Source of the DNA: Microcystis aeruginosa NIES-2549
Lineage (GTDB): Bacteria > Cyanobacteriota > Cyanobacteriia > Cyanobacteriales > Microcystaceae
Assembly (NCBI RefSeq): GCF_000981785.2
Contig: NZ_CP011304.1
Location: 1,770,001-1,802,000, forward strand
Length of the DNA: 32,000 bases
Direction: 5' to 3'
This document shows, piece by piece, positions 5,239-32,000 of the stretch. Both the position numbers and the translations under genes were made by a program. Position 1 is the stretch's first letter. Each line of letters begins with the position of its first letter. The notes under the pieces are model-generated. The model saw nothing but the letters and a program-made list of their open reading frames with translations, was not told where the DNA came from and ran no database searches.

Positions 5239-5470
5239 TGGTATTTTGGTTAATTAGTAAATATACTTTTAATAATAATTAATAATTGTCCCCTTTTTCA
5301 AGAGTGGCTCATCCCAGTTTAGTAAAATGTAGGGTGCGTTAGACGGCGACAATCTTTGCTTAAACTTGAATCTAACAATCCGTCGCAACGCACCACACCT
5401 ATCATTAATTTAATTTGGTGCGTTACGCTATCGCTAACGCACCCTACTGGACTGGTATTTTGGTTAATTA

Positions 5471-7152: not shown

Positions 7153-7852
7153 TAATTAGTAAATACACTTTTAATAATAATTAATAATTGTCCCCTTTTT
7201 CAAGAGTGGCTCATCCCAGTTTAGTAAAATGTAGGGTGCGTTAGACGGCGACAATCTCTGCTTAAACTTGAATCTAACAATCCGTCGCAACGCACCACAC
7301 CTATCATTAATTTAATTTGGTGCGTTACGCTATCGCTAACGCACCCTACTGGACTGGTATTTTGGTTAATTAGTAAATACACTTTTAATAATAATTAATA
7401 ATTGTCCCCTTTTTCAAGAGTGGCTCATCCCAGTTTAGTAAAATGTAGGGTGCGTTAGACGGCGACAATCTCTGCTTAAACTTGAATCTAACAATCCGTC
7501 GCAACGCACCACACCTATCATTAATTTAATTTGGTGCGTTACGCTATCGCTAACGCACCCTACTGGACTGGTATTTTGGTTAATTAGTAAATACACTTTT
7601 AATAATAATTAATAATTGTCCCCTTTTTCAAGAGTGGCTCATCCCAGTTTAGTAAAATGTAGGGTGCGTTAGACGGCGACAATCTCTGCTTAAACTTGAA
7701 TCTAACAATCCGTCGCAACGCACCACACCTATCATTAATTTAATTTGGTGCGTTACGCTATCGCTAACGCACCCTACTTATGATAAAATGCTGTCAAGGT
7801 CAGGGAGGGAAAACTTGCAATTATTCACTCAATAAAATAACTGATAGCCGAG

Positions 7853-9979: not shown

Positions 9980-10154
9980 ACTTGTGTTGGGGGTGACAGC
10001 AATAACTTTTGTCTATCAAAAATGAGCGACACTTGCGGGAAACTGCACCGATGTCTTTAAAAATATTGGGTTTTGGCTCAAATTATTGAATCGAGCAGTT
10101 TTTTCCTAAGTATTAAAGCGCTCAACCCAACCGACAAGCTAGAGGGTATCGCAT

Positions 10155-14398: not shown

Positions 14399-14400
14399 GG

Positions 14401-14435
14401 TCAGTTATCAGTTATCAGTTATCAGTTATCAGTGG
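14401..14435. repeat. Heptamer array (TCAGTTA) x5, immediately upstream of the larB start
   Basis: tcagtta x4 followed by tcagtgg. Confidence 0.95.
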
Positions 14436-14522
14436 GTAAGTTAACAGTTATCAGATTTGAGTTTTAAGTGAGCAGTATGTGTTAAGTGACCAGTATTAAA
14501 TAGCAGTTTCTTGCCATCTTTT

Positions 14523-14571
14523 CACTGATTACTGATCACTGATTACTGATTACTGCTCACTGATTACTGAT
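14523..14571. repeat. Heptamer array (YACTGAT) x7, in inverse orientation to 14401-14435 and abutting the rnj stop
   Basis: cactgat tactgat cactgat tactgat tactgct cactgat tactgat. ACTGAT is the complement of ATCAGT in the other array. Confidence 0.95.
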
Positions 14572-14572
14572 A

Positions 14573-16563: not shown

Positions 16564-17457
16564 CTAGATTAAAGCCAATTCTTGCATAATTTTTGCTAAT
16601 CCTTCTTCTAGTTCGGGACTTAAGGAACATAAAGGAGATCGCAATCCCCCCACCTCCCAACCGACTAGATTTAAGGCCGCTTTAATTGGAATTGGATTAG
16701 TGGCACAGAATAAACCTTTAAACAGGGGAAATAATTTCAAGTTAATCTCGATCGCTTTGGCCGCATCTCCGGTTAATAAAGCTTGAATCATCCCTTGGAT
16801 TTCTTCTCCCACTAGATGACTAGCAACACTGACCACCCCCACCGCACCACAGGTCATCAGGGGTAAGGTGAGAAAATCATCGCCGGAATAAATAGCGAAA
16901 TTTTCAGGGGTATGACAGTAAATCTTACAGGTTTGTTCTAAATTACCACTAGCTTCTTTTACCGCCACAATATTATCAACTGCTGCCAGTTTAATAATCG
17001 TTTCCGGGGTCATATTTTGACCCGTTCGACCAGGGATATTATAAAGCATCACCGGCAGATCGGGACAAGCTTTGGCAATGGTCAGAAAATGCTCGTATAA
17101 ACCCTCTTGGGGTGGTTTATTGTAGTAGGGAACCACTTGTAAAGAACCATCTAAACCCAGTTTAGCAGCCTGTTGGGTCGCTTCGATCGCTTCGGAAGTG
17201 GAATTAGAACCCGTCCCCGCGATCACTTTTCCCCGACCATTAACCGCTTTTTTGACAATACTAAATAGTTCGTATTCTTCCTGCCAACTTAGGGTGGGTG
17301 ATTCTCCCGTCGTCCCACAGACCACTATACCATCGCTACCGTGAGTAACTAGATAATCGGCCAATTTTTCCACCAGGGCATAATTAACTTGACCCTCGAC
17401 GGTGAAGGGAGTCACCATCGCCGTAATTACTCGTCCAAAATAGGTTGTTTCACTCAT
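16564..17457 (-). CDS. dapA: 4-hydroxy-tetrahydrodipicolinate synthase
   Basis: 297 aa. Motifs are [26 protein letters not shown], and the Schiff-base lysine context VAVKEASG. Confidence 0.95.
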
Positions 17458-17460
17458 TGA

Positions 17461-17500
17461 TCAGTTATCAGTTATCAGTTATCAGTTATCAGTTATCAGC
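17461..17500. repeat. Heptamer array (TCAGTTA) x5.7, immediately upstream of the dapA start
   Basis: tcagtta x5 followed by tcagc. Confidence 0.95.
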
Positions 17501-17708
17501 TTCTGAAGGTAAGAGGCAAAAGAAAGAATCTGGCAATCCGCTTACCTAAAAAGAAGATTACAAACTAAGTACGTCTAAGCTTTTCGCTTAACCAATTAGG
17601 TTTTAGGTTCGGTCTTTGTTATCATTTTTTGAGCGATAAGCAATCAGCTTTCAGACTTTACTTATCCGGTTAATTAGCTATTTTTCTAATTATCATCGTC
17701 TTGATCTA

Positions 17709-17729
17709 GCTGATGGCTGATAGCTTGAT
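17709..17729. repeat. Degenerate heptamer array (GCTGATG-type) x3, next to the asd stop
   Basis: gctgatg gctgata gcttgat. Confidence 0.6.
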
Positions 17730-17731
17730 TA

Positions 17732-18769
17732 TCAAACTGTTGCTAATCTGGAACCGACGAGATTTTTCTTGACTAAAAGTTCCGCAATTTGTACAGCATT
17801 TAAAGCCGCACCCTTGCGAATTTGATCGCCGCATAGCCACAATTCTAGACCGTTAGGATGGGAGATATCTTGACGAATGCGTCCCACTAATACTTCATCG
17901 CGACCGGTAGCATCAATTGGCATGGGAAAATAATTAGCGTCCCAATCTTCCACTAATTTTACCCCAGGAGCAGACTCAAGAATTTCTCTGGCCTTCACCA
18001 CAGAAAAAGGCCGACTAAATTCTAGGTTAACCGATTCCGAATGGGCCCGCAGGACGGGAACCCGTACACAGGTGGCGCTAACCCGCAGTCCTGGACAAGC
18101 AAAAATCTTGCGGGTTTCGTTGACCATTTTCATTTCTTCCTCGCAGTACCCCTGACCATTAATCGGGGTATTGTGGGGAAAAAGATTAAAAGCGAGGGGA
18201 TAGGGGAAGGAATTAGTGGGAGGTAGCCGATGCTCAAGAATTGCTTGTGCTTGCTCTTTCACTTCCTCCATGGCCCGCGCTCCAGCACCACTGGCGGACT
18301 GATAAGTAGAAACTACTACTCGCTCGATCGCCTGTACTTGGTGGAGAGGCCAGATCGCCACTCCTAAAAGAATTGTCGTACAGTTGGGATTAGCGATAAT
18401 GCCCCGGTGATTGTCCACACTGTCGGGATTGATTTCCGGGACAACTAGAGGCACTTCGGGATTCATGCGAAAAGCGCTGGAGTTATCGATAATCGTCGCA
18501 CCCGACTCGACAATAGTTTTCGCCCAAGCTTTCGAGGTGGACCCCCCCGCAGAAGCAAGAACGATATCCACGTCCTGAAAAGAGCGCTCGTTTACCGCTT
18601 CGATTAGGAGACTTTCGCCCTGAAAATCGAGGGTTTTTCCAGCAGAACGCTCGGAAGCGAGTAATTTTAGACTAGCGAGAGGAAATTGACGACTAGCTAA
18701 TAACTCTAGTAATTCCGTTCCCACGGCCCCGGTGGCCCCTAAAATAGCGACCCGTACTTTTTGACTCAA
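17732..18769 (-). CDS. asd: Aspartate-semialdehyde dehydrogenase
   Basis: 345 aa. It has the NAD-binding VAILGATGAVG, the active-site context IANPNCTT, and SASGAG. Confidence 0.95.
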   Translation of the reverse strand: MSQKVRVAILGATGAVGTELLELLASRQFPLASLKLLASERSAGKTLDFQGESLLIEAVNERSFQDVDIVLASAGGSTSKAWAKTIVESGATIIDNSSAFRMNPEVPLVVPEINPDSVDNHRGIIANPNCTTILLGVAIWPLHQVQAIERVVVSTYQSASGAGARAMEEVKEQAQAILEHRLPPTNSFPYPLAFNLFPHNTPINGQGYCEEEMKMVNETRKIFACPGLRVSATCVRVPVLRAHSESVNLEFSRPFSVVKAREILESAPGVKLVEDWDANYFPMPIDATGRDEVLVGRIRQDISHPNGLELWLCGDQIRKGAALNAVQIAELLVKKNLVGSRLATV

Positions 18770-19093
18770 ATTGTGTGACCTCCTGACGAGTTGGGTGATG
18801 ATAATGATCCGAAGAAATCGTTAAAGTAAAAAATCTTTTTTGTCCACCGAGTTATTCTAAAACTTGGCTTGATCGGCTTTTGATCGCCAAAAATTTCTGA
18901 TTGGGCCTGACCGCCCCGAGGACGGAATAAATTAAATATACCCCATTGACCGCTAAAATAAAAAGATTGTGACAGCTTGGGGAACAACTGCAGCTATTCC
19001 CCTAGAATATCATGAGCGGGACGGATCCACCGCAGGCGCGAACACCGCTCACCCTATTATAAACGTTCCTTGTCGTAAGAGCTAGAAAAATCA

Positions 19094-20491
19094 ATGAAAG
19101 TTATTCAGGAAAAGCTTCCTGCCAGTCAGATAGGTTTAGAAATTGAAATTCCCGCCGAAACCACGAAAAACACCCACGAGAAAGTGGTAAATAATTTAGC
19201 GAAGTCGGCCAATATACCCGGTTTTCGCCCCGGCAAGGTTCCCCGTCAGATTCTTCTGCAAAGATTGGGTTCTAAAGCTGTAAAAGCGGCGGTAATTGAG
19301 GAATTAATCGAAAATTGTCTCGAATCTGCCCTAAAACAGGAGGGGATCGAGTCCCTGGGTACTCCGCAGCTATTGTCTCAGTTTGAGGATTTGATCGCTG
19401 CCTATGAACCGGGTAAAGCTTTGACTTTTTCAGTTTCCGTGGATGTGGCCCCGACAATTATTCTCGGAGATTACGAAAATCTGAGCGTTACTGCCGAAGA
19501 AACCGTTTATGATCCCGAATCCGTGGAAAATTGGTTTAAAGAGCGTCAAGAACAGTTAGCGACATTGGTTCCCGTGGAAGATCGCGGGGCGCAGCTGGGA
19601 GATGTGGCGATCGTTGATTATCGAGGAAAATCCGCCGAAACTGGCGAAGATATCCCGGATATTGACGGCGAAGATCTGCGGGTGGATATGGAACCAGGAC
19701 GCTTTATCGAGGGGATGGTAGAAGGAATTGTCGGCATGAAACCGGAAGAAGTCAAAGAGATGACTTTAACTTTCCCGGAAGATTATCCCAAAGAAGATGT
19801 GGCAGCAAAAGCGGTAATCTTTACCATTACGATGAAAGAGTTAAAAGCGAAGGAATTACCAGAGCTTGACGACGATTTTGCCCAAGAAGTCAGCGATCAG
19901 GAAACAATCGCCGAATTAAGAGCAAGTTTAGAGAAACGCTTCCAAGAACAAGCGGAGAAGGAAACCAAAGACAGCATTTATGATGCTTTAACTCAGGAAT
20001 TAGTCAAGGGTGCGACTTTAGATTTACCGGAGACGCTGATCGAAAAGGAAGTGACGCATATTTTGACCCAAAGCTTCATGCAGTTCCAACAAATGGGGCT
20101 AGATGTCAACCAGTTGTTTACAAAAGATAATATTCCCAAAATGCGGGAAAGCGCTCGTCCCGATGCGCTCGAAAGTCTGAAACAGACTCTCGTGGTGCAG
20201 GAATTGGCTAAAGTCGCGGGCATTGAAGTCAGTCCCGAAGCGGTAACGGAAAAAATCGCTAAAATCATGGCCCAATTGTCCGATCGCGACATAGATAGGC
20301 AGCGTCTGGAACAGGTGATCACCGAAGAAATCCTGGCGGAAAACACCCTGGAATGGCTGAAAGGAAAAGCTACTATCACCCTCGTCCCCAAAGGTTCCCT
20401 AGAGGAGGAAGCAAGCGAGGAGGAGGAAACAGAAGAAACCTTCGCATTCACCGAAGTGGAAGTGTTGGCAGCCGAGGCTGAGGAAGAATAA
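19094..20491 (+). CDS. tig: Trigger factor
   Basis: 465 aa. It carries the ribosome-binding signature GFRPGKVP, a central FKBP-like domain, and an acidic C-terminal tail. The tig-clpP-clpX order is conserved. Confidence 0.95.
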   Translation: MKVIQEKLPASQIGLEIEIPAETTKNTHEKVVNNLAKSANIPGFRPGKVPRQILLQRLGSKAVKAAVIEELIENCLESALKQEGIESLGTPQLLSQFEDLIAAYEPGKALTFSVSVDVAPTIILGDYENLSVTAEETVYDPESVENWFKERQEQLATLVPVEDRGAQLGDVAIVDYRGKSAETGEDIPDIDGEDLRVDMEPGRFIEGMVEGIVGMKPEEVKEMTLTFPEDYPKEDVAAKAVIFTITMKELKAKELPELDDDFAQEVSDQETIAELRASLEKRFQEQAEKETKDSIYDALTQELVKGATLDLPETLIEKEVTHILTQSFMQFQQMGLDVNQLFTKDNIPKMRESARPDALESLKQTLVVQELAKVAGIEVSPEAVTEKIAKIMAQLSDRDIDRQRLEQVITEEILAENTLEWLKGKATITLVPKGSLEEEASEEEETEETFAFTEVEVLAAEAEEE

Positions 20492-20510
20492 CCCTTGGCT
20501 ATCTTGAAGT

Positions 20511-20546
20511 CGTCAGCCTTTTAGCCGTCAGCCGTCAGCCATCAGC
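20511..20546. repeat. Heptamer array (CGTCAGC/CATCAGC), degenerate
   Basis: cgtcagc at 20511, then cgtcagc cgtcagc catcagc at 20526-20546, followed by T6. Confidence 0.8.
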
Positions 20547-20570
20547 TTTTTTCTCCCGATATCCCTGTTC

Positions 20571-20654
20571 ACTGATGGCTGATAACTGATAACTGATCAC
20601 TGATAACTGATAACTGATCACTGATAACTGATCACTGATAACTGATAACTGATT
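20571..20654. repeat. Heptamer array (ACTGATA/ACTGATC) x12
   Basis: actgatg gctgata actgata actgatc actgata actgata actgatc actgata actgatc actgata actgata actgatt. Confidence 0.95.
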
Positions 20655-20782
20655 GCTGCCAACCGGGGGAAACTTAGGGCATAATAGATGGACAGAAGTG
20701 CTAAAGATGCTTAACATTTGCCAGTAAAAGCTCCACAGCCAAGCAAAACCCCTAAGATTGTGATAGCGGAACCGAAAAAATT

Positions 20783-21484
20783 ATGCTCGAATCGAGATCA
20801 CCTGACTACCCAATTACCAGTAATTGTCGCCCTGCTATCTACGCCAACACGGGGAGAAACTCCCTAGCTAACGTTTTACCCGTGGTAATCGAACAGTCTG
20901 GCATGGGTGAACGGGCTTTTGATATCTATTCTCGACTCCTGCGCGAGAGAATTGTCTTTCTGGGAACCCCCGTCGATGATCAGGTCGCTGATTCGATCGT
21001 CGCCCAACTCCTCTACTTGGAGGCAGAAGATCCCGAAAAGGATATCCAACTTTATATCAACTCCCCCGGTGGTTCCGTTTATGCCGGACTAGCTATCTAC
21101 GACACCATGCAACAAATTCGCCCCGACGTGGCGACAATTTGTTTCGGTTTAGCCGCTAGTATGGGAGCATTCCTGCTTTGTGGTGGCGCGGCAGGTAAAC
21201 GGATGTCCCTACCCAGTAGCCGGATCATGATTCACCAACCCCTCGGCGGCGCCCAAGGTCAAGCTAGTGATATCGCCATCCAAGCCAAAGAGATCCTCTA
21301 TATTAAACAGAGACTCAATACCATGCTGGCTCATCACACCGGTCAACCCTACGATCGCATCGCCAACGACACCGAACGGGACTTTTTCATGTCCGCCGTC
21401 GAAGCTAAAGAATATGGGTTAATCGATCAGGTGATTTCCCGTCCCGAACTGCCCGATCCTACCGTTCCCGTTACTTCCCTGTAA
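20783..21484 (+). CDS. clpP: ATP-dependent Clp protease proteolytic subunit (ClpP2-like, with N-terminal extension)
   Basis: 233 aa. It has [19 protein letters not shown] and the triad contexts GLAASMGAF (Ser), MIHQPLGG (His) and ERDFFMSA (Asp). The exact start is uncertain. Confidence 0.93.
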
Positions 21485-21494
21485 ATAATAAACT

Positions 21495-22829
21495 ATGTCT
21501 AAATACGACTCCCACCTCAAGTGTTCATTTTGCGGCAAATCCCAGGAACAAGTGCGAAAATTAATCGCCGGGCCGGGGGTCTATATTTGTGACGAGTGTG
21601 TGGAACTGTGTAACGAAATTCTCGATGAGGAATTGATGGAACCGCCCAGTCCGGTCGCCCCAGTGGAGGAACGTCCCAACAAACGGCGATCGGGCCAAAA
21701 CAAAACCACTTGGGAACAAATTCCCAAACCAAGAGAGATTAAAAAATACCTCGATGACTACGTTATCGGTCAAAATGAGGCGAAAAAAGTGCTTTCTGTG
21801 GCCGTTTATAACCATTACAAACGCCTCAAAGATATCCAAACCCAAAAAGCCGGTGGCGGTAGTCCAGAAGATAGCATCGAACTGCAAAAATCCAATATTC
21901 TGTTAATCGGGCCGACGGGATCGGGAAAAACCCTTCTAGCTCAAACTCTTGCTAAAATCCTCGATGTACCTTTTGCCGTCGCCGATGCCACCACTTTAAC
22001 CGAGGCCGGTTATGTGGGGGAAGATGTGGAAAATATTCTCTTGCGTCTGTTGCAAGTGGCAGATTTAGACGTGGAAGAAGCGCAGCGGGGCATTATCTAC
22101 ATCGATGAAATCGATAAAATTGCCCGCAAGAGCGAAAATACCTCGATTACCCGGGATGTGTCCGGAGAAGGGGTACAGCAAGCTTTACTGAAAATGTTAG
22201 AGGGAACGATCGCCAATGTTCCCCCCCAAGGCGGCCGCAAACACCCCTATCAGGATTGTATTCAGATTGACACCAGCAATATCCTGTTTATCTGCGGTGG
22301 GGCGTTTGTCGGTTTAGATAAGGTGATCGATCAGCGTCTCGGTAAAAAATCCATGGGCTTTATTCAACCGGGAGATGGCCAAGCTAGTAAGGATAAGGTA
22401 GCGGCAGGGTTATTAAAACAAATGACTCCCGATGATTTAGTCAAATTTGGCATGATTCCAGAGTTTGTCGGTCGGATTCCCGTCCTAGCGGCGCTTTCAC
22501 CCCTGGATGAGGAAGCTTTAATCGCTATCCTGACGCAACCCCGCAACGCTTTGGTGAAACAGTATCAAAAACTGTTGAAGATGGACAATGTACAGTTAGA
22601 GTTTAAATCTGATGCCGTCCTAGCGATCGCCCAAGAGGCCTATCGTCGCAAAACTGGGGCCCGGGCCCTACGGGGTATTGTCGAGGAATTAATGCTCGAT
22701 GTCATGTACGAATTGCCCTCGCGCAAGGACGTGAAACGCTGTTTAATCACCCGCGAAATGGTGGAAAAACGTTCCACGGCAGAGCTATTGGTTCATCCTT
22801 CCTCTCTACCTAGTCAAGAATCCGCTTAA
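21495..22829 (+). CDS. clpX: ATP-dependent Clp protease ATP-binding subunit ClpX
   Basis: 444 aa. It has the zinc-binding CSFCGK...CDEC, Walker A GPTGSGKT, Walker [10 protein letters not shown], and the IGF-loop-type region. Confidence 0.97.
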
Positions 22830-22850
22830 GGGGAAAAATCGAGGTTAACC

Positions 22851-23060
22851 ATGCTGAACACCGTTCCTGCGATCATCAAAGAAGGCCGGATCGAACTCCT
22901 CGAATCCGTGCCGATTCCAGAGGGTACTAGGGTTTTAGTCACCCTCATCCCGGAGGAGACAAACTCGGATTTCTGGCAAAAAGTCAGCGAAACTGCACTG
23001 GCTAAGATTTGGGATAATCTGGAAGACGACATCTATCATGAAAACTCAAATAATCGATAA
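22851..23060 (+). CDS. Small antitoxin-like protein (DUF104/AbrB-like N-terminal beta-hairpin motif)
   Basis: 69 aa. AIIKEGRIELLESVPIPEGTRVLVTLIPEE resembles the short antitoxin-family fold. A second block is ALAKIWDNLEDDIY. The gene overlaps the next gene by 23 nt. Confidence 0.55.
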   Translation: MLNTVPAIIKEGRIELLESVPIPEGTRVLVTLIPEETNSDFWQKVSETALAKIWDNLEDDIYHENSNNR

Positions 23061-23895
23061 AACAGTCACTGTCCGCGGTGTTCCCCACTATTACGAGTGG
23101 ATTCGACAGTCGGAATCTGCCCAGAAAAAGCCAGTCATGGTGTTTATTCATGGTTGGGGAGGATCGGGACGCTATTGGCGATCGACGGCTGCGGCAATTT
23201 GCGATCGCTTTGATTGTTTATTGTACGATATGCGCGGTTTTGGTCGGTCTAAATTGCCGGAAAAATCCCCCGATCTTTCCTACGATTTAGAAGAATATGC
23301 CCTTGATTTAGCATTGTTTTTAGATAGTTTGGAAATTGAAAAAATCTATCTAAATAGTCACTCTATGGGGGCATCGGTGGCGACTTTTTTTATTACTATG
23401 TACCCCGAAAGAGTGGTCAAAGCAGTTTTAACCTGTAATGGCATTTTTGAGTATAATAAAGCGGCTTTTGCTGCCTTTCATAAATTCGGTAAGTATGTGG
23501 TACAGTTTCGTTATGATTGGTTTTTAAAAGTCCCTTTTGCCGATCAATTATTTATGGCGAGATTTTTGCATCGATCGATCCCAAAATCAGAAAGAATTGC
23601 TTTTTTAGAAGATTTTTTAGCGGCAGATTACGAGGCCGCCCTAGGCACAATTTATACATCTGTGAGTGAAAAGGCAGTGGAAATTATGCCTGGTAAATTT
23701 GCAGAGATTAAGGTACCAACTCTTTTAGTATCAGGGGAAAAAGATATTATTATCCCTGCCAAAATGGGCAAAATGGCGGCGGATTTGAATAATAATATCC
23801 AGTATGTGGAGATGGCTAATACCGCTCACTTTCCCATGTTAGAAGATGCCCCTACTTATCTACAAAAATTGCAAGATTTTTTAGAAATTAATTAG
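23038..23895 (+). CDS. Alpha/beta-fold hydrolase
   Basis: 285 aa. It has HGWGGS, the nucleophile elbow NSHSMGA, and a C-terminal His context (NTAHFPMLE). The G of the stop TAG at 23893-23895 is also the first base of an IS-end-like GGGTTTGCT. Confidence 0.85.
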   Translation: MKTQIIDKTVTVRGVPHYYEWIRQSESAQKKPVMVFIHGWGGSGRYWRSTAAAICDRFDCLLYDMRGFGRSKLPEKSPDLSYDLEEYALDLALFLDSLEIEKIYLNSHSMGASVATFFITMYPERVVKAVLTCNGIFEYNKAAFAAFHKFGKYVVQFRYDWFLKVPFADQLFMARFLHRSIPKSERIAFLEDFLAADYEAALGTIYTSVSEKAVEIMPGKFAEIKVPTLLVSGEKDIIIPAKMGKMAADLNNNIQYVEMANTAHFPMLEDAPTYLQKLQDFLEIN

Positions 23896-23904
23896 GGTTT
23901 GCTA

Positions 23905-24135
23905 GGGGAAATGAGTTTCTATGATGTGACTGACAAGTATATTGAGGATAAAGAGTTACGCCGTCAGGGTGGATATTTGGGGGTACAGCGTCGCCAGGAT
24001 TTAAGACCAGAAATATCTGCTGCTGTGTTTGCTACGAAACCTCCTCAGTTGCTTAAACCTATTGTGAAAGCTAAAGGGATAAGCTTGATTTTAGTGGAGG
24101 AAATTATACAGCGGAATTGGATGATAAGTACCTAA
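23905..24135 (+). pseudogene. 5'-truncated, frameshifted fragment of a parvulin-type PPIase paralogous to 31171-31908
   Basis: EMSFYDVTDKYIEDKELRRQGGYLGVQRRQDLRPEISAAVFATKPPQLLKPIVKAKGISLILVEEII aligns with residues EMSFYDVAHQYIQDVELRRQGGYRGILSRKDLKPEISAAVFATTPPEVLKPIVTSKGVHLILVEEIL of the intact gene. The match continues in another frame (AELDDKY vs SELDNKL). There is no N-terminal half. Confidence 0.85.
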
Positions 24136-24168
24136 GCAAAATTAATTACACATATCTAACTACCTCTT
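24128..24168 (+). repeat. 41-bp dispersed repeat, copy B
   Basis: GTACCTAAGCAAAATTAATTACACATATCTAACTACCTCTT matches the reverse complement of 4379-4419 at 39/41. Confidence 0.9.
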
Positions 24169-25074
24169 ACCTTCTGGGCTCTTCTCAAATTTGTGTGATA
24201 ATTTTTGCTTATGTAAGGTTAAATGTTTACTGGTCAGGACTTTTAGGACTATTTTGAAAGAAGAAACTATCAGTATAGACCTCGTTTCCACACAGAAACC
24301 AGAAGAGCCATAAATGAACAACACTATGTTAAGGAATGTAAAAGAGGCGGTTTTCGCTGCTGCATACAGCTTTCTACCCTATTTACAAAACTTTATACAG
24401 CAGCGAAAACTTATGTCCGACTACTTAAACCAGAAGTATCTGGTATAATGCTCAAAAAGCATGGGCGACATACACCGTGCTAACTGCCCACCATCTGTTC
24501 TACGAGTACGAGGTAATACCCGTGTCTAATTGATTTATACCGCAAATACGCAACGCCAAATTTTGTTTTGCAAAGATGTCGCAGATTGTCCAAAATCCTC
24601 TAATGTCAATGAGTATCAGCTTATGAAATCATCTCAAATTGGTATTAATTTTCCCAATAACTCTGGTCGATTTCTCAGTGCTTTTCAGAGAAAACACTTA
24701 GAAAAAAGCCTAGAAAAAGGGTTGTCTAAGCGCCATTTTCAACGAATTCAAATTATGCTGCTGGCAGATGAGGGTAAAACCCAAACCCAAATTTGCCAAG
24801 AGTTGGGCTGTTCCCATAGTACAGCACGCCATTGGATAACCCTCGCCAAGTCTGGTCAGGCTCACCAGTGGAATATTGGCCCAATTGGCAGACCTCAAAC
24901 TGTAGACGAGGAATGCTTGCAGCGTTTGAGGAAGTTAGTCAGTCAAAGCCCTAGAGAAGTTAAAGTCCCTCACCGTGATTTTAGTTATTAGACCTCTCCA
25001 AAAATTTATAAGTCAGTCACAGCAAGGAAGAGAGGCAGATTAGACCAAGAGTCAAAATTAGCTCTCAAAACCGA

Positions 25075-26305
25075 TTAATCAGGGTTTGAAGAGACAAAAT
25101 CCAATTTTGACGGAAAACTATGGCTAATTATAACGTCAATTACTTCCCCTGATTGCTCCCCTTCTATTACTTCTAAAATTAGCGCACTAATTCTCAACCT
25201 TACTAAGCCACAAACGGTCAGTAAAACCGATTTATATCGACTTTTATTTAATCTAAATCTTTCTTGAACTACTTTAAATACTTTGACAACTCGAATTAAA
25301 TGCTCAACAAAAATTCGCCGAGATGATAAAACTTTATTTTCTTTAATTTGATTCTCGGTTAATTCTCCATTCTTAGGTTTTTTATCAGGAGTTCTGATTT
25401 GATTTTCTCCTAGGTAAGCTTTATCTCCAATAAAAGTTTGTTGAGAATCGAATTTGCTTAAAGTTTGCCGACAGATTTTTATGTCGCTCGTCGGACCAGG
25501 TTGACCAATAACTACATCAACAATATCTTCAGCTTTTGGCAAGACAATAAATTGACTTTTTAAAGTATGTCTTTTTTGCTTTCCCGAATAATATATTTTT
25601 TGTTCTTGATAATCGGTCGGCCTCTCCACGGGCTGTTCTGCGCTATCGACAATCAACTCATAATCCCTTAATTGTTCAATTATTATTTCCTCTTCTTGGC
25701 ACTTCTTTATTTGTTCTAACAAACTTGGCGGTAACTCTCCTTCAAAAAGTTTTTGCCAATAGGTAAAGATATTATGAGCCGTTGATTCACTCACTTGAAA
25801 TATTAGTCCTAAGATTTGAAAGCTTAGATGATGTCTTAAATAAACCAACATTAGAACAATTTGTTCCTCTTCTGATAATTTACTGACAGGGGGACAAGAC
25901 CTCTCAAAGCATTGTCCACAAAGGTTTTGAGGCTCCTCAGTTACAAACAGATACATCGCTTTCAGCCAAAAAGCTAACGAAATAATCAGGGATTTGGGCG
26001 AGCTTACTAGAAATATTTATCAACAACGGGGGGTGAGCTGCATCGAACTTTTTCGCTCCAACACCCCAAAAAGCTTGTGATGTAAGGAGTTCAGCCAGCT
26101 TGTCCCCCTGTCAGGATAATTTAGGAGGTGTTCCGCTTCCTGGTTGATTAATCCTAATTTTGGTTTTTTCGATTTCTGATTGGTTTTTCCGATGTATAAG
26201 TTTTCCAAGTGCCATCAGTTGTTCTAGTTGTTGGTAGTCAATTCCTAATAGTCTTTTAGTTTGTTTCGGATATTTTTGAATGTATTCCCAAGTGTAGTTT
26301 TTCAT
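25075..26305 (-). pseudogene. Harbinger-type DDE transposase, interrupted by a MITE
   Basis: The N-terminal part at 26305-26113 ends ...GSGTPPKLS. After removing 25883-26123, the frame continues SEEEQIVLMLVYLRHHLSFQILG... DDE contexts are LIVDSAEQPVERP, FIGDKAYLG and RRIFVEHLIRVVK. Confidence 0.85.
25883..26114. mobile_element. 232-bp MITE with 16-bp perfect terminal inverted repeats and a 9-bp target-site duplication
   Basis: The inverted repeats are CTGACAGGGGGACAAG (25883-25898) and CTTGTCCCCCTGTCAG (26099-26114). GATAATTTA is duplicated at 25874-25882 and 26115-26123. Confidence 0.92.
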
Positions 26306-26648
26306 GGCTTTTTTGAGTTACTATTTGTTTTATTATATCCTATATATTGTGATTTAATTAAATTATGGAGAGGTCTATTCGGCTTCCCGATGGACTGCTA
26401 AGAAACTCAGCGAGCACCTGAGCGCAGAATTAGGAATTAAAATCAGCGATCGCCATATCAACAGACTACTCAAACAAATGGGTTTATCTACCAGACCAAA
26501 ATCGAATAACCTTGAAAAAAATGAGCCGAAAAAATCCAGTAAAAGCGGCATTGTGATTAGGGACATTCCAGAGGAGGTGGCATTTTCTTAATCATCATGA
26601 AAAATCTATTAAGTGCTATTAAGTGTTGGCAACACTATCGAGGGAGAA

Positions 26649-29363
26649 ATGACTACCAAAGAATATCTATCTGGTCTAATCGGTCAATTTTTATCAGAAG
26701 AGGATTTAGCCAGTTTAGTTGAGTCGGCTGAATTTTCAAAACCTAACCCCGGTTTGTTGTTGGAAAGTATCTCAGCATCCGATGGCTTATATATTTTGGT
26801 CGCTGGCAAAGTAAGACTGGTTAACAGTAGCCTGGACTTAATTAGCACCCTGCATCCGGCTCAACTATTTGGGGAATGTACTTTGTTTCCTGAAGCCGGT
26901 TTTTTAGATTATGCTGTCAGGGTTTCGCCTCAAGCAGAGCTATGTTATATTCCCGGTAAAGTTTTGCGCTCTATCATTCATAAAAATTCCCGATTTAAGG
27001 AGTATTTGTACAATTTAGCTACCGCTAAAGATAATGAACAAAAAAGGAAATTTTCCATAAATACTCAACTAGATTTATCCGTAAACGACGACCAGGAACT
27101 AATTGCGGGAATTAGCACAATCAAAGATGAAATATATCTAAAAACCCACAAGCAAAAAGTTAACAAGGCTTATTTCCCTAGCCCCACTCAGCGCGTTACT
27201 CATCTATGGCAGCATATTACTAGACGCTATCCTTTTTTTGAGCAACAAAGTGGTTCTGACTGTGGTGCTGCTTGTTTAGTAATGGTTGCCCGTTATTGGG
27301 GCAAAAAGTTTAGTGTCAACCGCATTCGAGATATTGCTAATGTAGATGCCAATGGGGCTTCTTTGCGAGGACTATCCGCTGCGGCGGAAAGTATCGGATT
27401 TTCCACTAGACCAGTTAAAGCCAGTATTGACCAACTAGCTAAACAAAAATTACCCGCAATCGCTCACTGGGAAGGCAAACATTATATCGTAGTTTATGAA
27501 ATCACTCGCAATCAAGTCATTGTTGCTGACCCTGCTATTGGTCAACGGAGTTTAACATATCCAGAATTTAAAACAGGTTGGCAGGGTTATACACTACTCC
27601 TACAACCGACAGCTTTAATCAAGGAACTCAAAAATCATACTACCCCATTTTGGCAATTTTTTAATTTAGCCAGTCCTCACGGTCAAGTATTACTAGAAGT
27701 ATTTATTGCTTCCTTAGTCATTCAAATTTTCGGATTAGTTACCCCACTATTTACTCAGTTACTCCTCGACCGGGTAGTTGTTCAAGGCAGTACATTAACC
27801 TTAACGGCTGTGGGATTAGGGTTAGTCATTTTTGGTTTATTTCGGGTTGCTTTGACCGGATTACGACAATATCTCCTCGACCACACTGCCAACAAAGTAA
27901 ATTTAGCCATGATTGTGGGATTTATTACCCACACTTTCCGATTACCCCTGCGTTTTTTTGAGTTTCGCTATGTGGGGGATATCATGGCCAGGGTGCAGGA
28001 AAACCGCAAGATTGAGAGATTTCTAACGGGTGAAGCCCTATCTATTGTATTAGATTTACTCACGGTCTTTATCTATGTGGGACTTATGTTCTGGTATAGC
28101 TGGAAAATGGCTTTACTGGCATTAGTCATTGTGCCACCTTTTTTCCTGCTTGCTATCATTGCTACTCCTTTCCTACAAAAGATATCCAGAGAAATATTTG
28201 CGGCCTTAGCGGAAGAAAGTGGTTATTTAATCCAATCTTTGACTGGTGTACGCACGGTCAAATCTCTGGCAATTGAGCAAGTAGTGCGCTGGCGTTGGGA
28301 GGAGTTTCTCAACAAGTCAATTCGCAAAAACTTTTCTGGGCAGATTATTAGCAACCGACTCCAAGTATTTAGCTTAACCATTGAATCTTTAGTGACCACT
28401 GGGCTGCTTTGGTTTGGGGCTTGGTTAGTGATTCAAGGAGAATTAACCATCGGGCAGTTGGTGGCTTTTAATATGTTAATTGGCAATGTAATAAACCCTT
28501 TTCAGCGGTTAACGGTTCTATGGAATGAGTTACAGGAGGTAATTATTGCAGTGGAGCGAATTAATGATGTGATTGATACCGAACCAGAGGAAGATTTGCA
28601 ATCTCAGGCTCGTTATTATTTAACAGATTTACGAGGAGATATTATTTTTGACAAGGTGACATTTCGTTACCACCCAGAAAGCGAAACTAATGTTTTAGAG
28701 AATCTCAGCTTTGAAATCAAAGCCGGACAGACTGTAGCTTTAGTGGGGCGTTCTGGTTCAGGAAAAACTACTATTTCTAAGCTAGTTTTGGGGCTATATA
28801 CCCCTACAGATGGGAAGATTTTCATTGATGGTCATGACATAACTAGCATTTCTTTATCTTCTTTGCGTCAAAGGGTTGGTGTTGTTGACCAGGATACTTT
28901 TTTATTTGGTGGCACAATTCGGGACAACTTGACCCTAGCGCGACCTTCTGCAACTCAGGCGGAAATTATCGAAGCCGCTCAATTAGCAGGTGCTGACGAG
29001 TTTATTCAAAAGTTACCGATGAGTTATGAAACCCAGATTGGTGAAGGTGGAGGGTTATTGTCTGGTGGTCAACGGCAAAGATTAGCCATCGCTAGGGCGT
29101 TATTAGGCAATCCTCGTCTATTGATTTTTGATGAGGCAACTTCCCACTTAGATGTGGAGTCGGAGCGAATTATTCAGACTAATTTGAATAGAATTCTTAA
29201 GGGACGTACTACATTAATTATTGCCCATCGCTTATCTACCGTTAGAAATGCTCATATAATTTTAGTTTTAGATAGAGGAGTATTAATAGAGCAAGGAAAT
29301 CACGAGCAGTTAATGGCAAAAAAAGGGCATTACTACTATTTAAATCATCAGCAACTTAACTAA
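26649..29363 (+). CDS. Peptidase-C39-domain ABC exporter (PCAT) with an N-terminal cyclic-nucleotide-binding-like domain
   Basis: The ATG at 26649 is preceded by GGGAGA; the tracked alternative start is GTG at 26613. The cNMP-like block is LYILVAGKVRLV...LFGECTLF. The C39 motif is QQSGSDCGAACLVMV, with the Cys codon at 27261-27263. A six-helix TMD follows. The NBD has Walker A GRSGSGKTT, signature LSGGQRQR and Walker B LLIFDEATSHLD. Confidence 0.92.
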   Translation: MTTKEYLSGLIGQFLSEEDLASLVESAEFSKPNPGLLLESISASDGLYILVAGKVRLVNSSLDLISTLHPAQLFGECTLFPEAGFLDYAVRVSPQAELCYIPGKVLRSIIHKNSRFKEYLYNLATAKDNEQKRKFSINTQLDLSVNDDQELIAGISTIKDEIYLKTHKQKVNKAYFPSPTQRVTHLWQHITRRYPFFEQQSGSDCGAACLVMVARYWGKKFSVNRIRDIANVDANGASLRGLSAAAESIGFSTRPVKASIDQLAKQKLPAIAHWEGKHYIVVYEITRNQVIVADPAIGQRSLTYPEFKTGWQGYTLLLQPTALIKELKNHTTPFWQFFNLASPHGQVLLEVFIASLVIQIFGLVTPLFTQLLLDRVVVQGSTLTLTAVGLGLVIFGLFRVALTGLRQYLLDHTANKVNLAMIVGFITHTFRLPLRFFEFRYVGDIMARVQENRKIERFLTGEALSIVLDLLTVFIYVGLMFWYSWKMALLALVIVPPFFLLAIIATPFLQKISREIFAALAEESGYLIQSLTGVRTVKSLAIEQVVRWRWEEFLNKSIRKNFSGQIISNRLQVFSLTIESLVTTGLLWFGAWLVIQGELTIGQLVAFNMLIGNVINPFQRLTVLWNELQEVIIAVERINDVIDTEPEEDLQSQARYYLTDLRGDIIFDKVTFRYHPESETNVLENLSFEIKAGQTVALVGRSGSGKTTISKLVLGLYTPTDGKIFIDGHDITSISLSSLRQRVGVVDQDTFLFGGTIRDNLTLARPSATQAEIIEAAQLAGADEFIQKLPMSYETQIGEGGGLLSGGQRQRLAIARALLGNPRLLIFDEATSHLDVESERIIQTNLNRILKGRTTLIIAHRLSTVRNAHIILVLDRGVLIEQGNHEQLMAKKGHYYYLNHQQLN

Positions 29364-29396
29364 TGTTCATAAATCTGAGCAAGATTTTCATAAATT

Positions 29397-31091
29397 ATGA
29401 CCCAGTTTAATGAGATTAACCAAGCAGACTTAAATGGTCGTAAAAGCGACCAAAATCTACCAGGAAGTAACCTAAATTCTTCGGCGGATTGGTCTTTTGC
29501 CACAAAGGAACTGTTGGATGCGTTACCTCAGCGGTGGACGCGAGGACTGCTCTATTTTTTAATCGTTTTTGTGGCGATCGCTTTGCCCTGGGGAATGTTG
29601 TCTCGGGTAGATGAAACGGGTAGTGCTAGGGGACGGTTAGAACCGCAAGGTGGTACAATTAAGCAAAAGCTAAATTTAACCTATACATCTGCGGCTCTTA
29701 ATTCCCAAACGGCTAAAGTTGAAATGCTAAATATTGAAGAAGGAGACATGGTAAAAGCTGGGGATATTTTAATGGAACTGGACAGTCTCCCTATTCGTGA
29801 GCGAATTACCCAACTGCAAATTCAACTACAAAGTCAAAATAATCGGCTGAATGCACTAAAGCAACAAAAAAATCAGCTAGAAACCGAACTGCGTACCCAA
29901 GAACGGCAAAATCAGTCCCAACAATTAGAGAAACTATCTCAGGTAGAACAAGCTCGACAAACCTTTCAGTCTCTTAAGACAACATACAATTTGCAAGAAC
30001 AGGAAAAACTGACTCAAATTGCTCAAGCGGAGCAAAATCTGGCAGCACTCAGAAGAACCTTAAATTTACAAAGAGAAGAGAAACTGACTCAAGTTGCCCA
30101 AGCCAAACAACAGTTAGAGGATAGCAACACCGCTTATAATTTAGCAGAATTGCGCTTACAAAAAGCCTTGAGGGAAGTCGAACGTTACCAGAATCTTTTC
30201 CATAATGGGGTGATAGCGGAAGTTCGGGTCGTTGAACAGGAAAATATCGCCGATGAAAGACAAAGTATTTGGAAGCAAAGTCAAGCAGATATTGAGCAAG
30301 CCAGACTGCGATTAGAAGAGCAGAAAAGCAGTTATGAGAGAATTGTTAATCAAGGGAAGGCGGATATTGAGCAAGCGGAGTTACGATTAATCGAACAAAA
30401 GAGGATTTATCAGAGAATTGTTAATCAAGGGGAAGCGGACATTGAGCAAGCGAAGTTGCGTTTAGCCGAGCAAGAGAATAGTGTTCAAACCCTTACTCAT
30501 GCGGGGGAAATTGCTCTGTCTAAAATTCAAGAACAGCTAAAAAGTTTGGATAGCCAAATCAGTAGTCTTAAATCTGAGGTGACGCAAACAAAGAAAGAAA
30601 TTGATTCTTTGAAGTTTGAGTTAGAGAAACGGATTGTTAGAGCCCAAGAAGGAGGCACTATTTTTAGTTTGCCGATTACTGGGGTGGGAGATGTGGTACA
30701 ACAAGGAGGAATGATTGTAGAAATAGCGCCCCAAAAAGCGGATATTTTATTGAAAGCAGAAATGGCCACTACACAAAGTGGTTCATTACAGAAAGGAATG
30801 GCGGTTAAGATGAAGTTTGATGCTTATCCTTTTCAGGACTATGGGGTAGTTGATGGAAGTTTAATTAAAATTTCCCCAACCACCAAAATGCAAGAAACAT
30901 CTCAGGGACGAGTAGCAATTTATGAACTAGAAATTGAGTTAAATAAAACTTGTATTCCTAGTGGAAATGACTGTATTCCATTACGTCCGGGAGATACGGC
31001 TACGGCTGAGGTGGTGGTGCGTCAGCGTCGCGTTATTGATTTTATTCTTGACCCATTCAAGAAGTTACAAAAAGGAGGTTTAGAATTTTAG
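29397..31091 (+). CDS. HlyD-family periplasmic adaptor (membrane fusion protein) with an expanded repetitive coiled coil
   Basis: 564 aa. It has an N-terminal TM segment (LLYFLIVFVAIALPWGML), a lipoyl-like half (VKAGDILMELD), a long Q/E/L-rich coiled coil, and a C-terminal beta-barrel block (GMAVKMKFDAYPF...LRPGDTATAEVV). Confidence 0.9.
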   Translation: MTQFNEINQADLNGRKSDQNLPGSNLNSSADWSFATKELLDALPQRWTRGLLYFLIVFVAIALPWGMLSRVDETGSARGRLEPQGGTIKQKLNLTYTSAALNSQTAKVEMLNIEEGDMVKAGDILMELDSLPIRERITQLQIQLQSQNNRLNALKQQKNQLETELRTQERQNQSQQLEKLSQVEQARQTFQSLKTTYNLQEQEKLTQIAQAEQNLAALRRTLNLQREEKLTQVAQAKQQLEDSNTAYNLAELRLQKALREVERYQNLFHNGVIAEVRVVEQENIADERQSIWKQSQADIEQARLRLEEQKSSYERIVNQGKADIEQAELRLIEQKRIYQRIVNQGEADIEQAKLRLAEQENSVQTLTHAGEIALSKIQEQLKSLDSQISSLKSEVTQTKKEIDSLKFELEKRIVRAQEGGTIFSLPITGVGDVVQQGGMIVEIAPQKADILLKAEMATTQSGSLQKGMAVKMKFDAYPFQDYGVVDGSLIKISPTTKMQETSQGRVAIYELEIELNKTCIPSGNDCIPLRPGDTATAEVVVRQRRVIDFILDPFKKLQKGGLEF

Positions 31092-31170
31092 AAAGCTTTT
31101 GTTCGAGGGCCTGTCATTCCCGCGAATTGCGGGAATCCATAAAAATGTTTTGATTACCCGGAGAAAGATT

Positions 31171-31908
31171 ATGTCACAATCTGTTGCCATTACTGCTGAA
31201 GATATTCTGAAACAAGTTAAGCTATCTCTTCAAATTCCCGATATAATCGAGTCTATTATTAGTCGTCAGATTATTACTGATGCAGCTACGGAAGCCGGGA
31301 TAACTGTGGATAATGAGGAACTTCAGCAAGCGGCGGATACTCTTAGACTTCTTCAGAAACTTCGTGGCGTACAAGAAACTTTTGCTTGGCTAGAGAAACA
31401 CCATTTGTCTGTTGATGATTTAGAAGAAATTGCCTACATCACCGTTATTTCCGAAAAGTTGATGACTCATCTATTTGCCGAGAAAGTTGAGCCTTACTTT
31501 TATGAAAATCAATTAGATTATACTGGGGTAGTGATGTATGAAGTGGTGTTAGACGATGAAGATTTAGCGATGGAATTGTTTTATTCTATTCAGGAAGAGG
31601 AAATGAGTTTCTATGATGTAGCTCACCAATATATTCAGGATGTAGAATTGCGTCGCCAAGGAGGATATCGGGGAATATTGTCTCGTAAGGATTTGAAACC
31701 AGAGATTTCTGCGGCTGTTTTTGCGACGACACCACCAGAAGTTCTTAAACCGATTGTGACTTCTAAGGGAGTGCATTTGATTTTGGTGGAGGAGATCCTT
31801 CAGTCCGAGTTAGATAATAAGTTACGCTGTCAAATTGTTTCAGAGTTGTTTGGCGAGTGGGTTATCAATCAAATTGAGTCAGTGTCAGTTGTCACCAATT
31901 TGGGATGA
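31171..31908 (+). CDS. Parvulin-type peptidyl-prolyl cis-trans isomerase (PpiC/SurA-like)
   Basis: The ATG at 31171 is preceded by GGAGA (31160-31164); the tracked ORF begins at 31099. The rotamase block is FYDVAHQYIQDVELRRQGGYRGILSRKDLKPEISAAVF...PIVTSKGVHLILVEEI. Confidence 0.8.
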   Translation: MSQSVAITAEDILKQVKLSLQIPDIIESIISRQIITDAATEAGITVDNEELQQAADTLRLLQKLRGVQETFAWLEKHHLSVDDLEEIAYITVISEKLMTHLFAEKVEPYFYENQLDYTGVVMYEVVLDDEDLAMELFYSIQEEEMSFYDVAHQYIQDVELRRQGGYRGILSRKDLKPEISAAVFATTPPEVLKPIVTSKGVHLILVEEILQSELDNKLRCQIVSELFGEWVINQIESVSVVTNLG

Positions 31909-31924
31909 ATAGCACTAACACGAA

Positions 31925-31958
31925 TATCATCCAGTCAGGTCAACCTAACTGGATGATA
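31925..31958 (+). terminator. Stem-loop downstream of the PPIase gene (possible terminator)
   Basis: The stem pairs TATCATCCAGT (31925-31935) with ACTGGATGATA (31948-31958): 11 bp perfect, with a 12-nt loop. Only a weak T-rich tail (gagatatttt) follows. Confidence 0.4.
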
Positions 31959-32000
31959 GAGATATTTTAGTAAAAACTGGGCTAGTTTCTTAACAAGAAC

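Follow-up and report, generated by a model that had tools for sequence, protein, structure and literature searches.

Export genes of a probable cyanobacterial bacteriocin-type peptide locus in Microcystis aeruginosa NIES-2549: a C39-peptidase ABC exporter, a HlyD adaptor and a parvulin protein

The most common type of bacteriocin cluster in cyanobacteria, group I in the survey of Wang, Fewer and Sivonen (2011), combines a long-type transporter (CAP_ED, C39 and ATP-binding cassette (ABC) domains) with a HlyD protein and a SurA-like rotamase; 57 such clusters were counted, at only 0.35 precursors per cluster, and a single one of the surveyed genomes had no such cluster (PMC3140520). Rotamase genes occurred in groups I, II and VI, all of which have the long-type transporter (PMC3140520). 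Here we analyze an export locus of this kind in Microcystis aeruginosa NIES-2549. It occupies positions 26649-31908 of a 32-kb stretch of 32,000 nt (contig NZ_CP011304.1, positions 1,770,001 to 1,802,000), which we refer to as the window, and it encodes an exporter, a HlyD-type adaptor and a parvulin protein. The first-pass annotation of the window had suggested that such an arrangement was already catalogued for cyanobacterial bacteriocins, and group I is that arrangement.

Related components have been characterized elsewhere. HetC of Nostoc PCC 7120 has an active peptidase and a cyclic-nucleotide-binding-like (cNMP) domain that is essential, does not respond to cyclic AMP (cAMP) or 2-oxoglutarate, and binds guanosine tetraphosphate (ppGpp) in vitro (PMC10986499). 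In Synechococcus elongatus, the catalytic cysteine of PteB is needed to secrete the adjacent double-glycine small proteins EbfG1-4 (PMC4997328). On the side of the cargo, Liang et al. (2022) described "type-B" class V candidate precursors, restricted to cyanobacteria and encoded beside LanK/LanY pairs (PMC9486802); these may be the same as the leader family described below.

We consider it likely that the three genes form the export arm of a conserved cyanobacterial locus for peptides of the bacteriocin type, or peptides that the ribosome makes and that are modified after translation (RiPPs), and that the cargo was cut off by the edge of the window. The genes, and a hairpin that follows them, are these:

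26649-29363, plus strand: peptidase-containing ABC transporter, 904 residues (Pfam, NCBIfam, structure alignments, motif positions)
29397-31091, plus strand: HlyD-type membrane fusion protein, 564 residues (Pfam HlyD_3, hydropathy, repeats)
31171-31908, plus strand: PrsA/SurA-like cytoplasmic parvulin protein, 245 residues (Rotamase, AlphaFold, Foldseek)
31925-31958, no strand assigned: hairpin with a perfect 15-bp stem, 3' of the parvulin gene (terminator scan)

Linkage of the export genes and position of the cargo gene

The three co-oriented open reading frames (ORFs) reported in the first-pass annotation were found at 26649-31908, and its domain calls for exporter, adaptor and parvulin protein all agree with Pfam. 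Two of its start codons had to be moved. Gene calls on identical or near-identical contigs, together with the starts of homologues, place the exporter start at ATG 26649 instead of GTG 26613 and the parvulin start at ATG 31171 instead of TTG 31099.

For comparison we retrieved 80 related genome loci through similarity to the parvulin protein (57-79% identity); their hosts are Nostocales, Oscillatoriales and some Pleurocapsales. Gene order was scored in the 68 loci having at least 5.4 kb of upstream sequence. In 63 of these the exporter, adaptor and parvulin genes are adjacent and on the same strand, which shows that the linkage of the peptidyl-prolyl isomerase to the transporter, on which the idea of a functional module had been made to depend, is conserved. 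Two of the five exceptions retain the exporter and adaptor genes within 10 kb. What is more, 67 of the 80 loci have a gene of one helix-turn-helix family as the immediate upstream neighbour of the exporter gene. The genes flanking this four-gene core vary widely among loci while the core persists, and the linkage is therefore not mere frozen synteny. Thus the proposed three-gene module is conserved but was incomplete: the core consists of four genes, encoding an IS630-derived helix-turn-helix protein, the exporter, the HlyD adaptor and a cytoplasmic parvulin protein, and the cargo and enzyme half of a larger peptide-maturation locus had also been missed.

The first-pass annotation saw no ORF with a double-glycine leader in the flanks that it read. 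We scanned all six frames of the whole 32 kb with two leader hidden Markov models (HMMs) built from the related loci and, separately, with a generic double-glycine-leader regular expression, and found none either. The absence of a cargo gene holds within the window but almost certainly not beyond its edge, and it is explained by the window ending 92 nt after the parvulin gene. A 31-mer taken from the 3' end of the window, sought as an exact match in metagenome contigs, located contig L096, which is 98.7-99.3% identical to window positions 24001-24989 and 26376-32000 (98.7% over 26376-32000) and extends 4 kb further. Window position 32000 corresponds to L096 position 7106, and a convergent precursor gene lies 12 nt beyond it, on the minus strand of L096 (7118-7303). 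Its product of 61 residues has a leader ending in Gly-Gly and reads MANITISDLRPAGADLFSDSESYLTDLTESEMLGTLGG then AGSASICWQNDKTQIRSITICWA. Beyond this gene come two small ORFs, a gene for a HopA1-family protein of 367 residues and a gene for an APH-fold kinase. The two small ORFs matched no curated Pfam or NCBIfam family, and one of them has a precomputed DUF6972 match. The order precursor, HopA1, kinase recurs in loci L086-L094 and in Arthrospira platensis PCC 7345 (L006). Given the 98.7% identity of this contig and the synteny, the cargo gene almost certainly lies about 12 nt past the window end in NIES-2549 as well. We predict that it is convergent, has about 61 codons and encodes a peptide beginning MANITISDLRPAGADLFSDSESYL..GG. 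The hairpin at 31925-31958, whose sequence is conserved in L086-L088, L092, L096 and L097, is likely a two-way terminator between the parvulin gene and this convergent precursor gene.

Clustering of the small ORFs from the 80 loci gave one dominant family of 158 peptides in 63 loci, and the leader HMM found 125 genes in 63 loci, with Gly-Gly exactly at the end of the model in 104 of the 116 unique leaders. The family has no Pfam or NCBIfam model, and a literature text search for the leader motif returned no papers. In 45 of 69 loci a precursor gene follows the parvulin gene at a distance of no more than 3 kb, and 54 of 69 have one somewhere in the locus, mostly on the opposite strand; several of the remaining loci have shorter leader variants that the HMM missed. 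The cores are hypervariable, with a median of about 25 residues of which about 18% are Ser or Thr, and many are hydrophobic, Cys-rich or made of Thr repeats.

The leader has two parts. Positions 24-38 form the classical double-glycine export motif, an amphipathic C-terminal half with the pattern L-x-[DE]-x-E-[LIM]-x-x-[TVI]-x-G-G. Positions 1-23 form an additional conserved module, M-A-x-I-x-I-x-D-L-x-P-x-G-x-[DE]-L-F-x-D-S-E-S-[FY]-L, whose X-Pro-X-Gly element has Pro in 79 and Gly in 94 of 108 leaders. Leaders with the full module occur in 38 of 40 loci that have the HopA1 and kinase pair vs 2 of 17 without it (Fisher p 7.6e-10, uncorrected for phylogeny). The HopA1-family gene beside the precursors matches PF17914 at 9.4e-65. 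The distribution of full-module leaders points to the N-terminal module as a recognition element for kinase and lyase; the C-terminal half would serve the C39 domain. Nostolanthin (bioRxiv 2026), which belongs to a class II LanM cluster, was set aside.

Some loci have further genes of interest. In L018, L026, L029, L045, L046, L050, L053, L057, L058, L060, L062 and L084 the HopA1 and kinase pair is accompanied by a second, divergent paralogue of the parvulin gene (27-33% identity) and by a gene resembling aldo/keto-reductases; the reductase-like protein might act on dehydro-amino acids. A second paralogue adjoins the kinase and lyase genes in 13 loci, and TIGR04500 was the best match of those scanned (two loci). 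Some precursors have cores of near-pure alternating Thr/Ile/Val/Leu repeats, e.g., LLGITLTITVTITITITL; some of these end in Trp-Thr repeats, and several are in tandem (L050 15173-17068, L060 12550-14018, L068 18339-18812). Many Nostocales loci carry a second peptide set near the tRNA methyltransferase gene trmB, 5-9 kb downstream of the parvulin gene (L010, L012, L022, L030, L032, L049 and others). Its members are precursors with Nif11 leaders, a "nif11-class radical SAM maturase 3", a conserved protein of 146 residues and a second double-glycine leader family, QIEINDLIDDAVKNAV..SDEEAKxVAGG, with 36 genes in 27 loci.

The exporter, the adaptor and the parvulin protein

The exporter matches ABC_membrane (1.4e-48), Peptidase_C39 (4.7e-41), ABC_tran (2.5e-36) and cNMP_binding (2.6e-06), the last at 27.7 bits, barely over the cut-off of 27.5. 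Residues 1-135 form a cNMP-binding-like sensor domain, residues 136-190 a linker modelled with low confidence and residues ~190-335 the C39 peptidase; the six-helix transmembrane domain and the ATPase follow. The ATPase motifs are present, with Walker A at 700, the signature at 804, Walker B at 824 and the H-loop at 858, and the Q-loop was also located. From residue 190 to 899 the protein aligns end to end with PCAT1 and ComA (E 1e-129).

The catalytic cysteine context SDCGAAC noted from the sequence is real: it holds Cys205 of the 904-residue protein (codon 27261-27263). Gln199, Cys205, His278 and Asp294 align with the catalytic set of PCAT1, and the entry of the PCAT1 C21A mutant (7n87) deviates precisely at the column of Cys205. 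The C39 region matches PCAT1 at E 5e-21 vs HlyB at E 1e-6. Since the Gln/Cys/His/Asp set is intact, the protein is a true peptidase-containing transporter and not a HlyB-type exporter with a dead C39-like domain. We infer from the catalytic residues and the solved relatives that it cleaves leaders and exports peptides at the expense of ATP. The best NCBIfam match is nonetheless the HlyB-type subfamily TIGR01846, at 646.8 bits under a cut-off of 725.

The N-terminal domain is degenerate in its putative ligand site. Residues 1-135 are predicted to adopt the cyclic-nucleotide-binding fold (AlphaFold predicted local distance difference test (pLDDT) score ~80-90), and Foldseek aligned them with the domains of PKG, PKA-R and CRP at target template-modelling (TM) scores of 0.7-0.76 and root-mean-square deviations of 2.7-3.5. 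An hhalign comparison was made with what we take to be the E. coli CRP sequence. In it, Glu81-Arg82-Ser83-Ala84 of CRP face Phe-Leu-Asp-Tyr at residues 85-88 of the exporter; the equivalents of Arg82 and Ser83 are Leu86 and Asp87, in columns that vary across the family. The suspicion that the domain lacks a canonical phosphate-binding cassette is thus upheld by hhalign, the cAMP-contact Arg and Ser being absent. Among related loci this domain diverges fast, at 30-39% identity vs 65-78% for the whole protein, and the ligand of HetC can therefore not be carried over to it. A homologue search with the N-terminal 215 residues returned 15 fragments only, and the shallow alignment built from them gave a good model of the cNMP domain and a poor one of the C39 domain (pLDDT <55). 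For this reason the C39 residues were assessed by sequence alignment to solved structures.

The adaptor matches HlyD_3 over residues 414-532 (7.7e-14; 52.8 bits, cut-off 22.2). It has a single N-terminal membrane helix at residues 47-72 and a Biotin_lipoyl_2 match at 105-129, and PF26002 (Beta-barrel_AprE) is assigned on a product identical to it. The match to TIGR01843 reaches 179.6 bits, under the cut-off of 208.65, and falls into three stretches, split by a lengthened coiled coil. The coiled-coil hairpin is extended by tandem 25-residue repeats, encoded at 29981-30110 and 30261-30472. Adaptor length varies: close relatives have 564, 578, 605, 630 or 682 residues, and two loci with one identical parvulin protein, L092 and L093, have adaptors that differ by exactly 25 residues (605 vs 630). 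In more distant relatives the range is ~460 to 682 residues, counted on the longest ORFs and leaving out genes that are obviously split.

The parvulin protein belongs to a family of more than 2100 homologues. It matches Rotamase PF00639 at 3.8e-09 (37.8 bits, cut-off 21.7), the match beginning at profile position 20. It scores under the cut-off of every curated NCBIfam family that it matched, the best being TIGR04500, a PpiC-related "putative peptide maturation system protein", at 68 bits. The AlphaFold model, of moderate quality (pLDDT 69), shows a single parvulin domain together with a helical domain at the N-terminus and a long helix at the C-terminus. Foldseek matches to PrsA and SurA span 211-270 columns (E 1e-6), and for the parvulin domain by itself Par10, Pin1 and the corresponding domain of PrsA give superpositions with a target TM of 0.5-0.65; a profile search of solved structures with the family gave marginal sequence matches only. 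As the first-pass annotation had noticed, the protein has no signal peptide, and it has no membrane helix either. Its highest Kyte-Doolittle mean over 19 residues is 1.06, vs 2.26 for the HlyD helix, and in the absence of a hydrophobic segment we place it in the cytoplasm.

Its catalytic capacity is less certain. The first beta strand of the parvulin domain (residues 120-127, VVMYEVVL) has no histidine; Met122-Tyr123-Glu124 are nearly invariant in the family, and a second histidine (GVHLI) is present in most members. The active-site histidines of Pin1 are not strictly needed for catalysis. Since the first-strand histidine is missing, prolyl isomerase activity is uncertain and a role as a chaperone is at least as likely. 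A resemblance of the parvulin N-terminus (MSQSITIT-EDIL) to the leader (MANITISDL) was considered as mimicry and dropped, the leader HMM giving E 0.5 or worse.

The helix-turn-helix gene, its insertion and variation between strains

The region upstream of the exporter contains these features:

23899-24135, plus strand: C-terminal remnant of a second parvulin gene, one base deleted (repeat D5; Rotamase 5e-06)
24129-24215, no strand assigned: element of 87 bp resembling a miniature inverted-repeat transposable element (MITE), with 27-nt terminal inverted repeats (inverted repeats; L097 alignment)
24623-24989, plus strand: helix-turn-helix gene, 5' part of ~122 codons, IS630-derived, without a DDE domain (Pfam HTH_23/HTH_29/HTH_28)
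24990-26375, minus strand: IS5-family insertion sequence, 1386 bp (DDE_Tnp_4 1.6e-29, HTH_Tnp_4 5.4e-19)
26376-26591, plus strand: helix-turn-helix gene, 3' part, stop codon 26589-26591 (aligns with L001 588-912 at 99.7%)

This region had been described as destroyed by nested insertions. Direct reading of the junctions gives a single insertion sequence inside one conserved gene. The ORF at 24530-24991 resembles the front of an IS630 transposase and is not debris but the 5' part of the helix-turn-helix gene, the fourth gene of the module in the 67 loci mentioned above. A dead IS630 was rejected as its identity, the ORF being intact in sister contigs and conserved in related loci. The intact allele encodes 192 residues in L001 (99.8% identical), and L001 and L003 (99.3-99.8% identical) join position 24989 directly to 26376. 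A search found 1218 homologues of ~175-245 residues; no DDE domain is given for any of those listed, and "transposase" is a common annotation among them. In the window the 5' part is terminated by a TAG created at the insertion junction. The stop codon of the gene lies 57 nt before the exporter ATG, and in L092 and L093 it overlaps the exporter start by 4 nt.

The IS5-family element ends in inverted repeats of 10 bp that match perfectly (AGACCTCTCC). It is flanked by a target duplication of 3 bp, and its transposase ORFs lie at 25075-25956 and 26111-26305. It is missing from L001, L003 and L096, which match the flanking helix-turn-helix gene at 99.3-99.8%; the insertion is polymorphic and therefore recent. 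It likely separates the promoter from the exporter genes in the window strain. Inspection by eye gave a candidate extended -10 promoter, TGGTATAAT at 24443-24451, which is weak evidence; the promoter scan gave no enrichment, with 12 sites vs 19 expected.

A second allele of the locus was found in L097, a 230-kb metagenome contig ~97% identical to window positions 17685-24129. Its gene order is alpha/beta hydrolase, a C-terminal parvulin remnant of 105 residues, precursor, HopA1 and kinase, and at the locus it has no helix-turn-helix, exporter or adaptor gene and no 5' half of the parvulin gene. In the window, too, the parvulin remnant has the alpha/beta hydrolase gene on one side; on the other side is the module. 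It is 74% identical to 31596-31803 and, over 112 nt (window 24001-24112), 99% identical to the L097 remnant (L097 2480-2797, minus strand). At ~24129 it is interrupted by the MITE-like element, which marks the left edge of the block that the window has and L097 lacks. Exactly at the position of this element in the window, L097 shifts from remnant-type to parvulin-gene-type sequence. On these alignments the 7.7-kb exporter block would have been either gained in the window strain or lost in L097.

An exact protein look-up with the parvulin product, from either start codon, gave no match, and every contig with an identical HlyD breaks within the parvulin gene. We read these assembly breaks as caused by the remnant copy of similar sequence. 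Over 30 nt at L096 ~6730-6760, the match is 29/30 to the remnant (window 23925-23955) vs 25/30 to the parvulin gene (31615-31645); this stretch may be a short gene-conversion tract, which may also be a cause of short-read assembly breaks there.

Elsewhere in the window, sequence related to the MITE-like element occurs at 4309-4422, 20 kb away. A Ser/Thr kinase fused to WD40 repeats is encoded at 7853-9979 and 8984-10039, its last repeats being 126-nt tandem copies with 88-91% identity. At 5237-5471, 5600-7102 and 7139-7801 there are a transposase-like ORF of 500 residues and the repeats of 214-235 nt that flank it, one upstream and three in tandem downstream, 92-99% identical. Arrays of the heptamer ACTGATA and its complement, of a type typical of filamentous cyanobacteria, lie between housekeeping genes at 4423-4470, 14398-14585, 17444-17507 and 20557-20674.

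Interpretation and comparison with known systems

The data allow us to outline how such a locus could work. A precursor of ~60 residues with a two-part leader would be made, and Ser and Thr in its variable core would be dehydrated by the kinase and lyase, as suggested by their homology to lanthipeptide enzymes of class V. The parvulin protein, to judge from linkage and fold, would hold or present the precursor in the cytoplasm. The C39 domain would cut after Gly-Gly, and the ABC core would pump the peptide out by way of the HlyD adaptor and of an unlinked channel of the TolC type. The N-terminal cNMP-fold domain would gate this activity by a ligand other than cAMP, ppGpp being the sole ligand shown for the paralogue HetC, and the helix-turn-helix protein would regulate the locus. 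A more specific proposal is that the parvulin protein is a dedicated leader-binding holdase or prolyl isomerase for these precursors, whose N-terminal leader module has the X-Pro-X-Gly element, and that it hands modified peptides to the exporter, that the helix-turn-helix protein is the regulator, that the degenerate cNMP domain gates on a stress nucleotide, and that the exporter cassette is exchanged between strains independently of precursor and enzymes. We offer this only tentatively and regard it, taken together, as doubtful. If true, it would be a case of chaperone-assisted, ligand-gated peptide export, previously undescribed for any RiPP system.

Several observations weigh against an export arm of a conserved peptide locus, or against parts of that reading. 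The 80 loci were picked through parvulin similarity and are phylogenetically non-independent. The cargo gene lies outside the window, its presence in this exact genome being judged from a 98.7%-identical contig and synteny. L097 keeps precursor, lyase and kinase without the exporter block, and the exporter is therefore not strictly needed in cis. Conversely, L021, L025 and L083 pair the helix-turn-helix and parvulin genes without exporter or adaptor, and these two proteins may therefore act beyond export. The part of the parvulin protein in export is suggested by linkage and fold, and its first beta strand lacks a histidine. The best match of the kinase is LxmK, at 75-87 bits vs a cut-off of 315. 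Among the genes of the precursor loci examined, no cyclase was identified and no LanX-type cyclase or decarboxylase was seen. With this weak score and without a cyclase, the term "lanthipeptide" is unproven, and we know of no isolated product from this cyanobacterial precursor family. As a separate observation, the three exporter-free loci, which are of the Lyngbya or Limnoraphis type (L021 900-2350, L025 9234-10732, L083 196-1700), have no precursor nearby either.

Three other explanations were weighed. The module could serve type I secretion of a large unlinked RTX or S-layer protein, small cargo being genuinely absent, in the manner of Synechocystis Sll1180/Sll1181, which the title of a paper on them presents as S-layer exporters. 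The HlyB-type TIGR01846 is the top NCBIfam match of the exporter, albeit under the cut-off, and HlyB structures match it at E 8e-149. HlyB is a weak match in the C39 region, however, where PCAT1 is far better and the four catalytic residues align with an active peptidase, and double-glycine precursors adjoin the module in most relatives and in L096, so that we give this explanation hardly any credence. Nor do we think that the parvulin gene is a bystander, placed beside the exporter by chance or shared ancestry. Its tie to export is seen at the level of gene linkage, the loci come from related filamentous cyanobacteria in which linkage may partly reflect descent, and the gene occurs without an exporter in the three loci just named. 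Adjacency in 63 of 68 loci is nevertheless kept although the flanking genes on both sides differ widely, the rotamase gene accompanies the long-type transporter in all three groups of Wang et al. that contain it (PMC3140520), and the second parvulin paralogue stands beside kinase and lyase genes in 13 loci, those scanned matching best a family named for peptide maturation (TIGR04500). A bystander thus seems very improbable.

The third explanation concerns this strain only: the insertion would have silenced the operon, leaving a decaying relic on its way to loss. The insertion does split the helix-turn-helix gene, between the candidate promoter and the exporter, an allele without the exporter block exists in L097, and the remnant of another parvulin gene adjoins the locus. 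On the other hand, none of the ORFs for exporter, adaptor and parvulin protein is broken, and they share 98.7% identity with the insertion-free L096, the insertion is polymorphic and hence recent, and a promoter could be supplied by the 57-nt gap or by the insertion itself. We consider a relic unlikely. The reading as the export arm of a peptide locus is therefore the one we retain. The first-pass annotation had held that precursor genes directly downstream, together with a canonical cNMP pocket, would make this an ordinary bacteriocin-type exporter. The precursor is present in L096 and the relatives and the pocket is non-canonical; since precursors lie directly downstream, we take the exporter to be of the ordinary bacteriocin type, the pocket aside.

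The finding is thus largely ordinary: the puzzle of an exporter without cargo is an effect of the window end, in an arrangement known since 2011. Some more general points may be of use in mining cyanobacterial peptide clusters. One recognizable two-part leader, which neither Pfam nor NCBIfam models, is shared by precursors in most of these loci, and its N-terminal half tracks a class V-like kinase and lyase pair. A helix-turn-helix gene of transposase origin, which annotations often label "transposase", belongs stably to the module. Strains with ~97% identity in the flanks can differ in whether they have the exporter block. The system would also be suitable for testing a cytoplasmic parvulin chaperone in peptide export.

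Set beside the systems described so far, the module has the same three parts as group I. Compared with that survey, one leader family is found here beside the module in most loci, usually followed by the kinase and lyase pair, and the helix-turn-helix gene, unmentioned there, is a conserved fourth member. HetC shares the domain order cNMP-like, C39, ABC with the window exporter; it belongs to the group II clade and has no adaptor gene nearby, whereas the window exporter has a HlyD neighbour. PteB is, like the window gene, a cyanobacterial C39-ABC exporter. Its EbfG cargo acts in biofilm formation and appears in the medium as ordinary tryptic peptides, and no kinase and lyase pair or parvulin partner is reported for PteB. 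PCAT1 of Clostridium thermocellum and ComA share the catalytic residues; the window exporter adds the cNMP-fold domain of ~135 residues and a linker and, unlike them, has a HlyD adaptor as its partner, which is what one would expect for a cell with two membranes.

The class V pairs CaoK/CaoY (cacaoidin) and LxmK/LxmY (lexapeptide) combine, like L096, an APH-fold kinase and a HopA1-family lyase with short precursors rich in Ser, Thr and Cys. In contrast to those systems, the kinase here scores under the LxmK cut-off, no LanX-type gene was seen, and the genes lie outside the window. The parvulin protein, finally, resembles the chaperones of the PrsA, SurA and NifM type in having a helical domain around one parvulin domain and, without a signal peptide or lipobox, it would be cytoplasmic like NifM.

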